Made by a program: the position numbers | DNA from: Escherichia coli | GTDB lineage: Bacteria > Pseudomonadota > Gammaproteobacteria > Enterobacterales > Enterobacteriaceae | NCBI RefSeq assembly: GCF_003334385.1 | Contig: NZ_QOWN01000003.1 | Length of the DNA stretch: 64,000 bases | Reading direction: 5' to 3' (one strand) | Part shown: in pieces, positions 44,101 to 50,100 of the stretch | Position numbering within the stretch: the stretch's first letter is position 1 | How the letters are laid out: every line of letters begins with the position of its first letter

Positions 44101-47100
44101 TTGATCGACATAGTGTATGACATGCCTGCAACAAATTGTCCGTACTGTGCCAGCCACTGGCTAACCAGATAAAACGTTGCCATTGAGATATAGCCATATA
44201 AGGTATAACTGGCTAAATCGATAATTGAACAGCGATGTTCCGTAGAGCTGGTGGTTTTCTTTATGACAGGTAAGCGACGACCCGGATGGGGTGGGAACGT
44301 ACAACGGTATAAAAACAGAGCGTTAATAAACATAATGCCTGCAGCAATCATAAAGGACCAACCGAACCACAGTTCAGCCCACACTAACAGGCTAATGATT
44401 AGCGGTAATAAAAATTGTCCGCTGGAAACAAATGCTTTAATTAAAATATTGGCTGTCCCAGGTGAGCGTGGAAAAGCTTCCATCAAACTGGGATAAGTGC
44501 CTGCATCGAGAAAACTGTTTGCCATTCCCGCCAGAAAGCCAAAAACATAAGCGATAATGATGTTATTGGTCTGCAGGATGCCAAAAAAGAAGGCCATATA
44601 GCAGCACATCCCGAGCATGATAAAAGGGCGGCGACCAAAGCGATCGGATAATAATCCTGCAAAAAGCAAGACACTTAATCGACCAATGCCCAGCGATGAG
44701 ATAACTATCGAGACACCCGCGGCATTAGTCTGCCAAAGTGTCTCCAGCGAGGCCATATTCAGGCTCATCAAAAGGACGCCCATACCATGCACCAGGTAAT
44801 TAAAATACAACCCAAGTGCGGTAGGGAAATAGGGATTTTTCATAGGTTCTACTTAGCAAAGGTGCTTTAAAAAGTGAAGCGATGTTGTGTCAGCATCCGT
44901 TCATTATTGTTGTAACAACGACAATTCCTTTCTGTGGAAAAATTAACAAAGCCGCTCCAGATCGTGTGCATATAATTCAGCAGCTACCGATTGATAGATC
45001 TTCCAGTCAATAAAATTGCCATCAGGGTAGACTCGTTGAAATGCGGTTAAGTCGGGGAAAAAACGCATGGTGTTGTTGCCGATGCGGTTATTTATTTTCT
45101 CTATGATGGCATGAAGATGTTTTTTTCTTTGCTGACGCATAGCCAACAGTTGCTCGACTACACGATCAGGAATGGCACACTTGCCATTTTCCCACTGACG
45201 CCAGCTTTCACTGTCACCGGTCTGGGCAATCCAGGTCGCGCATTCATCAATAGTCATGGCAAAAATATGGCGGAGTGCCTGGAGTTCATAAGCGTTCATC
45301 GTGTAATGGCTGCATGAAATAAACAATAAAATATAAATAACATTATCAGCCTGCTGACGGCTTGAAGAGAGTCACAGTATCTTGTGCAACATTATTGGAA
45401 AGAGTGAGGGGCGAGGTAGCGAAGCGGAAAAATGTTAAAAAAAAGCCCATCGTGGGAGATGGGCAAAGACTACACACAGCAATTCGTTGTTTCACTCAGG
45501 GGATTTCCATGCTTATAAATCAATATGTTGATTTATAACCGTGAGCTAATAGTAGGCATACGGACTTTTTGCGTCGATCAGATTCGTCTCATTAGTTTAA
45601 AAACTGTAAAGAATTTGCGACAGGTACTACCAGCTGAATGGCGGTAAGCAGGAAAATATGGGGAAGAGCAAGCAAATATCAATTAGCGGTGGTTAACAAT
45701 CAGGCGGCAGAGCCGCCTGATGAGAAATTACTTATTCGGTTTCTCGATTTCGCCAAGTTCTTCGAGAATTTCTTCCGGTTGGTCCGTCGGCGGCGGGACT
45801 TCTTCCACCCACGCGGCAAACAGACGCCAGGAAACGGCTAACAGAACCGGACCAATAAACAGACCGATCATCCCGAAAGCAATCAAACCACCAATAACGC
45901 CAGAGAGAATCAGGATCAGCGGTAAATCGGCACCCATGCGAATTAACATTGGGCGGATGACGTTATCCAGCGTGCCAACCACACCGCTCCACACTAACAA
46001 TACCGTTCCCCAGGTGGTATCGCCAGTCCAGTAGAGCCAGATAATCGCCGGAATCAGTACCGGCAACGGGCCAAGCTGGACAAGGCAGGAGAGGATCATT
46101 AACACCGTTAGCAACGTTGCATAAGGTACGCCGGATACGGCGAGGCCGATACCGCCAAGCACTGCCTGTACTAACGCCGTCACCACCACACCCAGCGCCA
46201 CCGCGCGGATAGCCTGTGCCGCCAGCAGCACGGCGGCATCTCCGCGAACGCCTGCCAGACGGGTTGCAAAATGGCGAATGCCTTGTGCCACCTGTTCACC
46301 GCGCCAGTACAGCAGGGCACTGAAGAGAAGCATCAGCGCACAATGCACCATAAAGCGCCCGATATGCGCCGCCTGCCCAACGAACCAGGTGGTGGTGGTG
46401 CCAATATAAGGGCGGACTTTCGCCATGATCGCCGTCCCCCCCATATCCAGCAAGTTGTGCCAGCCTGCATACAGCTTCGCGCCAATCACCGGAATGGTAT
46501 TAAGCCACGCCAGATCGGGTAACGTCATGTCACCGCTGGAAATGGCTTTAATTAGCGGGCCGCTGCCGTCGACGATACTGTTAACCAGCAAAGCAATAGG
46601 GATGATAAACACCATCACTAATAACAGCGTCATCACCAGAACGGCGAGAGAGCGGCGGCCAAACATGATCTTTTGCAAACGTAACAATACCGGCCAGGTG
46701 GCGATAACCACCGTACCGGCCCATGCAAAGCCGAGAATAAAGGGTTGAACAATCCACAGACATGCCACAATCATGATGGCTAAAAACAGCACCGAAAGCA
46801 GAATTTGTGCGACATCCCTGGGCTGACGAACATTTACCATAACTACTTTTCACCTTTTTTGTGCGTCAAATCGTCGACGCGACGTGAACACGCGAAACTC
46901 ACCTGCATAATGATGAGCAATTTCAGCGGTTTTTAACAGGCCGATTCTGCCCTTAATTCTGATGGGCGTGTTAGAAAAAAATGTGGTACAACAACTCAGG
47001 CAACACGCAAACGATTTACTCGTCGTATTTCAAGTTGCATGTGCTGCGGCTACGTTCGTTCACCCCAGTCACTTACTATTGTAAGCTCCTGGAGTTCACT

Positions 47101-50100
47101 CGCTTGCCGCCTTCCTGCAACACGAAATCCATAGAGTAAACAAACATCACCTTTCAGTGCGCTATTGCAGCAGCCTGAAAGAATAGTGTATCGACCTACA
47201 TCACAGACCGCAGGAAAGGGTCAATATAATGATTCCACAGATTTCCCAGGCACCCGGCGTCGTTCAACTGGTGCTTAATTTTTTGCAAGAGCTGGAGCAA
47301 CAAGGTTTTACCGGCGATACGGCGACAAGTTATGCCGATCGTCTGACAATGTCGACCGACAACAGTATTTACCAACTTCTCCCCGATGCGGTGGTATTTC
47401 CGCGTTCAACCGCAGATGTGGCGCTGATCGCCCGTCTTGCCGCGCAGGAACGCTATTCATCGCTGATCTTTACCCCCCGCGGCGGCGGCACCGGCACTAA
47501 CGGTCAGGCGCTCAACCAGGGGATTATTGTTGATATGTCCCGCCATATGAACCGCATCATCGAAATTAACCCTGAAGAGGGCTGGGTGCGCGTTGAGGCC
47601 GGGGTGATAAAAGATCAACTCAATCAGTACCTGAAACCGTTCGGCTACTTTTTTGCGCCGGAACTTTCGACCAGCAACCGGGCAACGCTCGGTGGGATGA
47701 TCAATACCGATGCATCCGGTCAGGGATCGCTGGTCTATGGCAAAACGTCAGATCACGTACTTGGCGTACGCGCGGTGTTGTTGGGGGGCGATATTCTCGA
47801 TACGCAACCTTTACCCGTCGAATTGGCGGAAACGCTGGGTAAATCCAATACCACAATCGGGCGAATTTATAACACGGTTTATCAACGTTGCCGTCAGCAA
47901 CGCCAGTTAATTATCGACAACTTCCCCAAACTTAACCGCTTTCTTACCGGTTACGATCTGCGTCATGTCTTTAACGATGAGATGACCGAGTTCGACCTGA
48001 CGCGCATTCTGACGGGTTCAGAAGGGACGCTGGCCTTTATTACCGAAGCGCGGCTGGATATTACACGCTTGCCTAAAGTGCGCCGTCTGGTGAACGTCAA
48101 ATATGACTCTTTTGACTCTGCGCTGCGTAACGCGCCGTTTATGGTTGAGGCGCGGGCGCTTTCGGTAGAGACGGTGGACTCAAAAGTGCTGAATCTGGCG
48201 CGGGAAGATATTGTCTGGCATTCCGTCAGCGAGTTGATTACCGATGTGCCTGACCAAGAGATGCTCGGGCTGAACATTGTGGAATTTGCTGGTGATGATG
48301 AGGCGCTGATTGATGAGCGGGTAAATGCACTCTGTGCGCGGTTGGATGAGCTGATCGCCAGTCATCAAGCAGGTGTCATCGGCTGGCAGGTGTGCCGTGA
48401 GCTGGCGGGGGTTGAACGTATCTATGCAATGCGCAAAAAAGCCGTTGGTCTGCTTGGCAATGCCAAAGGTGCCGCTAAGCCAATTCCGTTTGCTGAGGAT
48501 ACCTGCGTACCGCCGGAACACCTGGCGGATTATATTGCTGAATTTCGCGCGCTGCTCGACAGCCACGGCTTAAGCTACGGTATGTTCGGTCACGTCGACG
48601 CAGGTGTCTTGCACGTCCGTCCAGCGCTGGATATGTGCGATCCTCAACAAGAGATTTTGATGAAGCAAATCTCTGATGACGTGGTGGCGCTGACTGCGAA
48701 ATACGGTGGTTTGTTGTGGGGCGAGCACGGCAAAGGTTTTCGCGCTGAATACAGCCCGGCGTTTTTCGGTGAGGAACTTTTTGCAGAACTGCGCAAAGTG
48801 AAAGCGGCATTTGACCCGCATAACCGACTCAACCCAGGGAAGATTTGCCCGCCAGAAGGTCTCGATGCGCCGATGATGAAAGTGGACGCGGTGAAGCGCG
48901 GTACATTCGATCGGCAGATCCCCATTGCGGTACGCCAGCAGTGGCGCGGTGCGATGGAGTGTAACGGCAACGGTTTATGCTTCAACTTTGATGCCCGTAG
49001 TCCGATGTGTCCGTCGATGAAGATCACCCAGAACCGGATTCATTCACCGAAAGGGCGCGCAACGCTGGTGCGTGAATGGCTGCGTTTGTTGGCGGATCGC
49101 GGCGTTGATCCACTCAAACTGGAACAAGAACTGCCTGAATCCGGCGTCAGTTTGCGGACGTTAATTGCCCGCACGCGCAATAGCTGGCATGCGAATAAAG
49201 GCGAATATGACTTCTCACACGAAGTCAAAGAGGCGATGTCGGGCTGTCTGGCCTGTAAAGCGTGTTCGACCCAGTGCCCCATCAAAATTGATGTGCCGGA
49301 GTTTCGCTCTCGTTTTCTGCAGCTCTATCACACCCGTTATTTACGCCCGCTGCGCGACCACCTCGTCGCTACGGTCGAGAGCTACGCGCCGCTGATGGCA
49401 CGCGCGCCGAAAACCTTTAACTTCTTCATTAACCAGCCGCTGGTGCGCAAACTCTCGGAAAAACATATCGGCATGGTTGATTTGCCGCTGCTGTCGGTCC
49501 CCTCGCTACAACAACAAATGGTGGGGCATCGCTCGGCAAACATGACGCTGGAACAGCTTGAATCTCTCAATGCAGAGCAGAAAGCGCGCACAGTGTTGGT
49601 GGTGCAGGACCCCTTTACCAGCTATTACGATGCGCAAGTGGTGGCGGATTTTGTCCGTCTGGTCGAAAAATTAGGTTTCCAGCCTGTGTTACTGCCATTT
49701 TCGCCAAATGGCAAAGCCCAGCATATTAAAGGTTTTCTTAATCGTTTTGCGAAGACGGCGAAAAAGACGGCGGATTTCCTCAACCGTATGGCGAAGCTGG
49801 GTATGCCAATGGTGGGCGTCGATCCGGCGCTGGTACTTTGTTATCGCGATGAATATAAACTGGCGCTGGGCGAGGAGCGTGGCGAGTTTAACGTCTTACT
49901 GGCGAATGAATGGCTGGCAAGCGCACTTGAGTCACAGCCAGTGGCTACAGTCAGCGGTGAATCATGGTATTTCTTTGGTCACTGTACCGAAGTTACCGCC
50001 TTGCCGGGTGCGCCAGCACAATGGGCCGCGATATTTGCCCGTTTTGGCGCGAAACTGGAAAATGTCAGCGTGGGTTGCTGCGGCATGGCAGGGACTTACG

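Follow-up and report, generated by a model that had tools for sequence, protein, structure and literature searches.

The 64-kb stretch of Escherichia coli DNA analysed in this work (contig NZ_QOWN01000003.1, hereafter the window) is identical to K-12 MG1655 across the ydiK–ydiJ region, where the spacer between two divergent genes harbors one enterobacterial repetitive intergenic consensus element (ERIC). Open reading frame calls and the RefSeq annotation place ydiK at 45728-46840 on the minus strand and ydiJ, currently named D-2-hydroxyglutarate dehydrogenase, at 47229-50285 on the plus strand, and they bear out the coordinates 46841-47228 that a first-pass annotation had given to the 388-bp divergent spacer, a feature without strand that represents what is called below the long allele. 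That annotation had described the spacer as containing several inverted repeats in what would be the ydiJ 5' leader, and had proposed that they could be regulatory RNA structure or protein-binding sites.

The assignment of the repeats to the ydiJ leader was correct, as two independent published maps of transcription starts place the main ydiJ start at 46999-47000 (plus strand), giving a 5' untranslated region (5' UTR) of 229 nt. This start is listed in Table S1 of Kim et al. 2012 (v2 coordinate 1766938, 49 reads, UTR 229; PMC3415461), and the upstream sequence printed by these authors matches the window and ends at 47000. SMRT-Cappable-seq located it at v3 1768914/1768915 on the reverse strand, with the operon b1687-b1686(-b1685), that is, ydiJ-menI(-ydiH) (PMC6131387). 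Published coordinates were converted to those of the window as v3 = 1815914 - window position and v2 = v3 - 1976.

An ERIC element as the source of the structure

The inverted repeat quoted in the first-pass annotation is exact, with CTTTCAG at 47151-47157, CTGAAAG at 47175-47181 and 17 nt between the arms, but short repeats of this kind are no commoner in the spacer than expected by chance. Two perfect inverted repeats of at least 7 bp with loops of 3-30 nt were found in the spacer, compared with a mean of 0.73 in its shuffles, 19% of which contained two or more, and 51% of the 388-bp tiles of the window held at least one such repeat; an enrichment of short inverted repeats was rejected by both the shuffles and the tiling. 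These counts bear on the idea that the short repeats are DNA operators for a dimeric regulator. The 7-bp repeat is perfect, and at least one regulator, PurR, does bind the spacer in vivo (PMC3159470); however, there are no more repeats than chance would give, the arms of the quoted repeat are 17 bp apart, in our assessment an unusually wide gap for the operator of a dimer, no other genus has the site, and the PurR-like motif lies elsewhere, at 47005-47020. We regard this possibility as very improbable.

The sole strongly non-random structure of the spacer is an imperfect palindrome of 122 bp at 47017-47138, whose arms of 25 nt each (47015-47039 and 47116-47140) are 76% complementary. It folds with -52.4 kcal/mol (z=-7.0) on the minus strand and with -36.8 kcal/mol (z=-3.9) on the plus strand, and the comparison with shuffled sequences identified it as the single source of the excess folding energy of the spacer. 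The left part of the spacer (46841-47016, 176 bp) folded no better than its own shuffles (z ~0).

This palindrome is a full-length ERIC/IRU element, a known mobile repeat. The family, which also carries the name RU-1, is said to have been described by Sharples and Lloyd in 1990 and by Hulton and colleagues in 1991. Its identity was established with a covariance model built on copies gathered from metagenome contigs, from which all ydiJ-locus copies were removed and the 67 others aligned. Searched with this model, the window gave a single match, at 47014-47141 on the minus strand, covering the full length (model positions 1-129) with 121.4 bits (E=3e-27). The boundaries of the unit are a TA at each end of 47017-47138, on the minus strand in the orientation of the published consensus and of the ERIC2 primer, the exact 18-mer core of which, AGTAAGTGACTGGGGTGA, is present at 47060-47077 on that strand; the ERIC primer sequences were checked against the published literature. 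The copy agrees with the family consensus at 107 of 126 aligned positions (85%), and it is 122 bp long from TA to TA, or 128 bp as the model match, compared with a published unit of 127 bp. An ungapped search with the ERIC1R primer found no match on the ydiJ-leader copy, which has a 1-nt deletion there, in a region that the family model does align. Pairing within the family is supported by two-sided changes in 11 of the 21 consensus pairs of the alignment.

ERIC has been described as a 127-bp miniature inverted-repeat element with terminal inverted repeats, TA ends and target duplication, able to form a long stem-loop once transcribed (PMC2229807, PMC10969869). The ydiJ-leader copy resembles this description in its length (~122-128 bp), in a core that corresponds to the ERIC2 primer region, in the long stem-loop made by its imperfect terminal inverted repeats, and in its TA ends. 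It also shares with the family a dispersed distribution of about a dozen copies per E. coli genome, an intergenic but transcribed location, and a presence at the site that varies among strains. A 127-bp ERIC query matched 56,364 places in 5426 complete E. coli genomes, all of which contained the repeat, with a median of 12 copies per genome, and metagenomes as well as Yersinia and Serratia loci yielded further copies. At ydiJ the element lies outside genes yet is transcribed, between the start at 47000 and the ATG at 47229. None of the differences from the family is essential. The copy falls 5 bp short of the 127-bp consensus, and it occupies a 5' UTR, whereas the Yersinia cases of ERIC altering mRNA stability, an effect that depends on orientation and involves RNase E (PMC2229807, PMC10969869), concern the 3' ends of genes. 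Since the consensus orientation is on the minus strand, the ydiJ mRNA carries the complement of the consensus, which folds more weakly. Finally, TA stands at 47017-18 and at 47137-38 while the empty site of outgroups and of the short allele reads ACGATT/AA; the insertion is clean, but a duplicated TA is indistinguishable from the element's own ends, and a TA duplication cannot be demonstrated unambiguously for this copy. The Correia/NEMIS elements of Neisseria and YPAL of Yersinia, whose sequences are unrelated, are likewise small, non-autonomous palindromic inserts that are co-transcribed with their neighbours and can give rise to RNase sites or promoters.

The statement of the first-pass annotation that the spacer is not recognisable as a known riboswitch agrees with the Rfam scan, in which no family reached its gathering score in the spacer. 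With permissive E-value filters the only family to pass was RprA, outside the spacer, and the best spacer match was the sub-threshold V_AS5 (RF02818; 36.9 bits, gathering score 96), followed by Ysr49 (RF02766; 27.0 bits, gathering score 95), both on 47019-47141 of the minus strand. As the V_AS5 model recurs with similar scores on other ERIC copies, it appears to describe ERIC-like sequence that has been annotated as a small RNA (sRNA). Although both families give matches over the ERIC segment, their scores are far under the gathering values and the ydiJ-leader segment belongs to neither; a known riboswitch or sRNA in the spacer was rejected on these grounds.

The same results weigh on a broader proposal, that the leader is a conserved cis-regulatory RNA (a riboswitch or an attenuator) which controls ydiJ by sensing a metabolite, for example D-2-hydroxyglutarate. 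Its location in a long 5' UTR and the better folding of the region relative to shuffles (z=-2.2 to -3.5) would fit this idea. However, no Rfam family reaches its threshold, all of the excess folding comes from a dispersed repeat while the conserved left part has z ~0, the structured segment is lacking in 22% of E. coli and in all the other genera that were sampled, and the hairpin described below shows no compensatory changes. We therefore consider this proposal extremely improbable: the structure that had been taken for possible regulatory RNA consists of the mobile ERIC element and a lineage-specific 54-bp block, not of a conserved regulatory RNA.

Other ERIC copies encountered during the searches merit a brief description. 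In one metagenome contig (L133, 269-538) the ERIC core occurs three times at an exact spacing of 126 bp, which suggests a head-to-tail tandem array. Fourteen further metagenome contigs (L094, L106, L113, L121, L131, L140, L150, L154, L155, L160, L163, L178, L187 and L208) contain the ERIC core CCCCAGGAGCTTAC...AGTAAGTGACTGGGGTGA within differing G+C-rich flanks, for example TTGAACAGCGCTTGCGCTGG and GGCCCCGnAAGGGGCGAGGCC; these contigs would be either chimeric or members of a related repeat family sharing only the ERIC core. A copy was also present on the 100-kb E. coli plasmid pHNAH212872-2 (NZ_CP104632.1; 1498-1626 of the locus L002), in a chromosomal-type segment with the genes pepD, prfH, a fragment of rtcB, yafP and dinB. 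In Yersinia, full ERIC copies are located about 1.5 kb upstream of ydiJ, near rprA. In the window, as in K-12, ydiK is followed shortly downstream by the RprA sRNA (45435-45542, minus strand, full length, 118.5 bits); this sRNA adjoins ydiK in Yersinia too, and likewise in Serratia, there with a score slightly below the gathering value.

A 185-bp insertion in the Escherichia lineage

The ERIC element and the adjoining 54-bp block together form an Escherichia-specific insertion of 185 bp at 47017-47201. The long allele that contains both was found in 4256 of the 5426 E. coli genomes and also in E. albertii, while in the remaining ~22% of the E. coli genomes the spacer was matched in two pieces. 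In the two short-allele genomes that were aligned, 47017-47201 is replaced by the 10 bp AATCTCTCAT; strain Z22-6, a carrier of the short allele, does not differ from K-12 in the flanks within the aligned stretch.

For comparison, 80 orthologous loci were fetched from other species. In 79 of them ydiK and ydiJ are divergent neighbours, with spacers mostly of ~200-213 bp and a few longer than 290 bp. In Citrobacter, Phytobacter, Leclercia, Kosakonia and Enterobacter, the sequence ...GCAAACGATTAA is joined to ...ACAGACC... with ~10 bp between them, as in the short allele of E. coli. None of the 78 non-Escherichia orthologs has an ERIC element at the ydiJ insertion point, which is occupied only in E. 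coli and E. albertii among the 80 loci. Because the other genera share the short arrangement and the ERIC element is confined to E. coli and E. albertii, the short allele is the ancestral layout and the 185-bp segment is a later insertion in the Escherichia lineage. The element separates the ancestral ...ACGATT from AA... and directly follows the core of the PurR-like operator on its downstream side, and the insertion lengthens the ydiJ 5' UTR from 54 nt to 229 nt.

Several ortholog spacers differ from the common layout. Those of Raoultella ornithinolytica, Siccibacter, Serratia, Pectobacterium, Yersinia and others measure 290-680 bp as compared with ~205 bp (loci L031, L038, L047, L052, L054, L057, L061, L066, L078 and L080). 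Citrobacter sp. R56 carries an unrelated insert of ~90 bp (L007, ~3875-3971) where the leader of E. coli has its ERIC, between ...ACGATTAGG and ACAACACAGACC, and the stretch of the ydiJ leader around the insertion point seems, from such comparisons, either to tolerate or to attract insertions. In Buttiauxella sp. A111 a short ERIC-like fragment with ends of the TATACCC/GGGTATA type (L044, 3866-3945; a weak partial match of 26.9 bits) lies elsewhere in the ydiK–ydiJ spacer, with the -10 block on one side and the ACGCAAACGAT box on the other, and represents an independent event in another genus.

The second inserted piece is a single-copy, Escherichia-specific block of 54 bp (47151-47204, plus strand). 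A direct-repeat search showed that it is preceded by a 7-bp repeat, so that the whole feature spans 47144-47204: ACATCAC occurs at 47144-47150 and again at 47198-47204, the second copy being the last 7 bp of the block. A 64-bp segment with the hairpin was single-copy and restricted to the same 4256 genomes that have ERIC at ydiJ, and nothing similar to the block was found elsewhere in 1.9 Mb of enterobacterial and metagenome DNA. In a plasmid collection the only matches were three E. coli records of 4.8-4.9 Mb, evidently the ydiJ locus itself; these replicons are chromosomes filed as plasmids. The possibility that the block belongs to a second repeat family was rejected on account of its single copy in E. 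coli, the lack of matches in the 1.9 Mb and the identity of the plasmid matches with the same locus.

The block contains the hairpin formed by the quoted repeat (47151-47181, plus strand), in which the 7-bp outer stem is accompanied by an inner stem, with a minimum free energy (MFE) of -13.6 kcal/mol and a z of -3.5 that applies to a segment chosen after the fact. Variants within Escherichia range from -9.8 to -13.6 kcal/mol. In O157:H7 the left arm reads CTTTCtG, which breaks one pair without compensation and lowers the stability of the fold from -13.6 to -9.8 kcal/mol; in E. albertii one pair becomes G·U, and the other variants are changed in the loop or the inner stem. Among the Escherichia variants the changes were one-sided or pair-breaking, and no compensatory, two-sided change was found. 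As the hairpin is present only in Escherichia, it is not something that could be conserved across Enterobacterales; pairing potential across species, by which the first-pass annotation had meant to judge the structure, is lacking, as the 185-bp segment is missing in ~22% of E. coli and in all the orthologs examined outside Escherichia.

Promoters, a probable PurR-type operator and a second 5' end

Within the spacer, conservation is seen in the divergent promoters and in a PurR-like box. The ydiK starts lie on the minus strand in the ancestral left part, at 46938 and 46903/46902; SMRT-Cappable-seq gives them as v3 1768976 and 1769011, forward, which correspond to 46938 and 46903 in the window (PMC6131387), and Kim et al. 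2012 report a ydiK start at v2 1767036 with 2 reads (PMC3415461). From this position of the starts it follows that the ydiK mRNA does not carry ERIC. On the plus strand, TGgTACAAC (46984-46992) lies inside a block that is shared across genera, AAAAATGTGrTACAAC, and from its position relative to the published start we infer that it is the extended -10 element of the ydiJ promoter. A sigma-70 consensus scan, which does not model extended -10 promoters, gave no match in the spacer. At the other end of the leader, the Shine-Dalgarno-like run AGGAAAGGG (47212-47220, plus strand) and the ydiJ ATG (47229-47231, plus strand) are ancestral and conserved, and the sequences AGGGTC and ATGAT of the ydiJ start region are invariant across genera in the ortholog comparison.

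The PurR-like operator, ACGCAAACGATTTACT, is located at 47005-47020 (no strand), that is, from +6 to +21 of the ydiJ start, and the 4 bp at its end, TACT, belong to the ERIC element, being its first bases. It was scored with a matrix derived from the 13 RegulonDB PurR sites listed in PMC2585596, which themselves reach 14.7-22.4 bits. With 14.8 bits it is the top site of the window for this matrix, yet it only equals the weakest of the training sites; 14.8 bits are also reached in 5 of 40 shuffled windows, so that the score in the window is not significant by itself. The first 12 nt of the box match the RegulonDB PurR site ACGCAAACGATTACCT; a box, ACGCAAACGATT, is conserved at +6 to +17 of the ydiJ start; and in 52 of the 80 orthologs the best upstream site contains GCAAACG, mostly ~32-57 nt before the ATG. 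The ortholog boxes score up to 20.0 bits in Enterobacter and 18.6 bits in Pantoea, and the box upstream of ydiJ is conserved from Escherichia to Pantoea. In addition, the box falls within a published region of PurR binding, listed as 'ydiJ/ydiK' in Table 1 of Cho et al. 2011, who worked by chromatin immunoprecipitation on microarrays (ChIP-chip; v2 1766545-1767225, log2 1.08, with adenine only and with no motif assigned; PMC3159470).

Compared with known PurR operators, which are 16-bp palindromes of the form ACGNAAACGTTTGCNT with a central CG, the candidate ydiJ box has a perfect left half and centre (ACGCAAACG) and, like the operators of several pur genes, stands a short way downstream of the start; it differs in a weak right half (ATTTACT), in a score equal to that of the weakest known site, and in that the ChIP-chip study gave no motif for ydiJ/ydiK. 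The spacer probably holds a PurR operator. The suggestion that the spacer has protein-binding sites thus stands in part, with a likely PurR-like box that is not at the inverted repeats to which the first-pass annotation had pointed. The outer 4 bp of this box distinguish the two alleles, being TACT in the long one (14.8 bits) and AATC in the short one (11.1 bits).

Folding of the whole leader predicts that ERIC pairs internally, that the hairpin forms separately and that the Shine-Dalgarno region pairs only locally. We also considered the right arm of ERIC at 47104-47118 (TTGCCGCCTTCCTGC), which is complementary at 12 of 15 positions to the ydiJ Shine-Dalgarno region at 47210-47224 (GCAGGAAAGGGTCAA); as this pairing is used neither in the MFE nor in the centroid fold predicted for the leader, it was treated as chance.

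Stem-loops of the ompA type at the 5' end protect mRNA from 5'-end-dependent attack by RNase E, and a similar role can be envisaged for the hairpin at 47151-47181 if the leader were cut after ERIC, or transcription restarted, at 47149, leaving 2 unpaired nt followed by the stem-loop. A second ydiJ 5' end was indeed reported by Kim et al. 2012 at 47149 (plus strand; v2 1766789, 25 reads, UTR 80; PMC3415461), a position 11 nt past ERIC and 2 nt short of the hairpin; for 47149-47260 the predicted fold opens with two unpaired bases and then the hairpin, and for Yersinia it was reported that ERIC exposes an RNase E site lying in its inverted repeat (PMC2229807, PMC10969869). Against this role as a stabiliser, the SMRT-Cappable-seq table has no entry for a start at 47149 at the ydiJ locus (PMC6131387), which argues against a primary start, and a processed end is confirmed by no dataset either; moreover, the hairpin is weakened without compensation in O157:H7, and 22% of the strains do without it. 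On balance we hold this role to be unlikely.

The end at 47149 could also reflect a promoter in the right arm of ERIC, which would give ydiJ a second start escaping PurR. The survival of this end through an exonuclease enrichment for triphosphate ends speaks for such a promoter. However, sequence inspection upstream of 47149 revealed no convincing -10 element: there is no acceptable hexamer at the right distance, TAAACA having 3 of 6 matches and TAGAGT lying 11 nt from the start. The consensus promoter scan likewise had no match in the spacer, and the end is missing from SMRT-Cappable-seq. This makes an ERIC-borne promoter quite doubtful, and the 47149 end may be a processed end or a weak start.

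Reach of the interpretation

With high confidence, we interpret the spacer as a pair of back-to-back promoters of ~210 bp to which Escherichia has added, in the ydiJ leader, a 185-bp insertion made of ERIC and the 54-bp block, and which the insertion modifies modestly at most. The ancestral part consists of ordinary back-to-back promoters, with the ydiK starts at 46903/46938, the ydiJ start at 47000 and a probable PurR-type operator. In the Escherichia lineage ERIC landed directly downstream of the operator core, and the single-copy block at 47151-47204 with the quoted hairpin is the second inserted piece. Both pieces are co-transcribed within the ydiJ 5' UTR only. The data establish what the element is, where it ends, that it was inserted later, that strains differ in having it and that it lies in the UTR; in the mRNA, the ERIC segment is expected to fold back into a long imperfect hairpin, and the 54-bp block to form a hairpin of its own. 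The insertion would then be, at most, a modest modifier of the stability or processing of the ydiJ mRNA and of the strength of the PurR operator, since the Shine-Dalgarno region is predicted to pair with neither ERIC nor the hairpin.

Some observations weigh against this interpretation. The 7-bp flanking direct repeat hints that the 54-bp block came from a separate event. A clean TA target duplication is not assignable, the empty site being TTAA and the ends of the element TA. The long allele is shared with E. albertii while an ancestral-type site is kept in 22% of E. coli, which needs either long-lived variation or recombination. The 47149 end, with its 25 reads after exonuclease enrichment, might be a promoter or processing site made by the insertion, beyond a passive effect. 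Lastly, any effect of this ERIC copy on ydiJ expression is hypothetical.

A further-reaching reading would be that the ERIC insertion is not neutral, given the altered end of the operator, the longer leader, the possible processing site and the 5' hairpin, a view to which we assign a low probability. The ydiJ leader is not a dedicated sensor or switch; most likely the insertion either has no role or modestly affects the processing of the mRNA and the strength of the operator.

Since ERIC elements, the ydiJ start and PurR binding in the ydiK–ydiJ spacer have already been published, these carry little weight as discoveries, and the operator assignment and the pair of long and short alleles may be the sole new parts of this work. 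They add to the annotation a candidate PurR operator for a ChIP-chip peak without a motif and a common allele pair on which an effect of ERIC could be measured. The ERIC element explains the structured look of the ydiJ leader, and it counsels caution against reading a mobile palindrome as a riboswitch. If the ERIC insertion is, against this expectation, not neutral, the long-allele (78%) and short-allele (22%) E. coli would regulate D-2-hydroxyglutarate dehydrogenase differently in response to purines, and the two alleles would constitute a natural, segregating test case for the action of ERIC in a 5' UTR.

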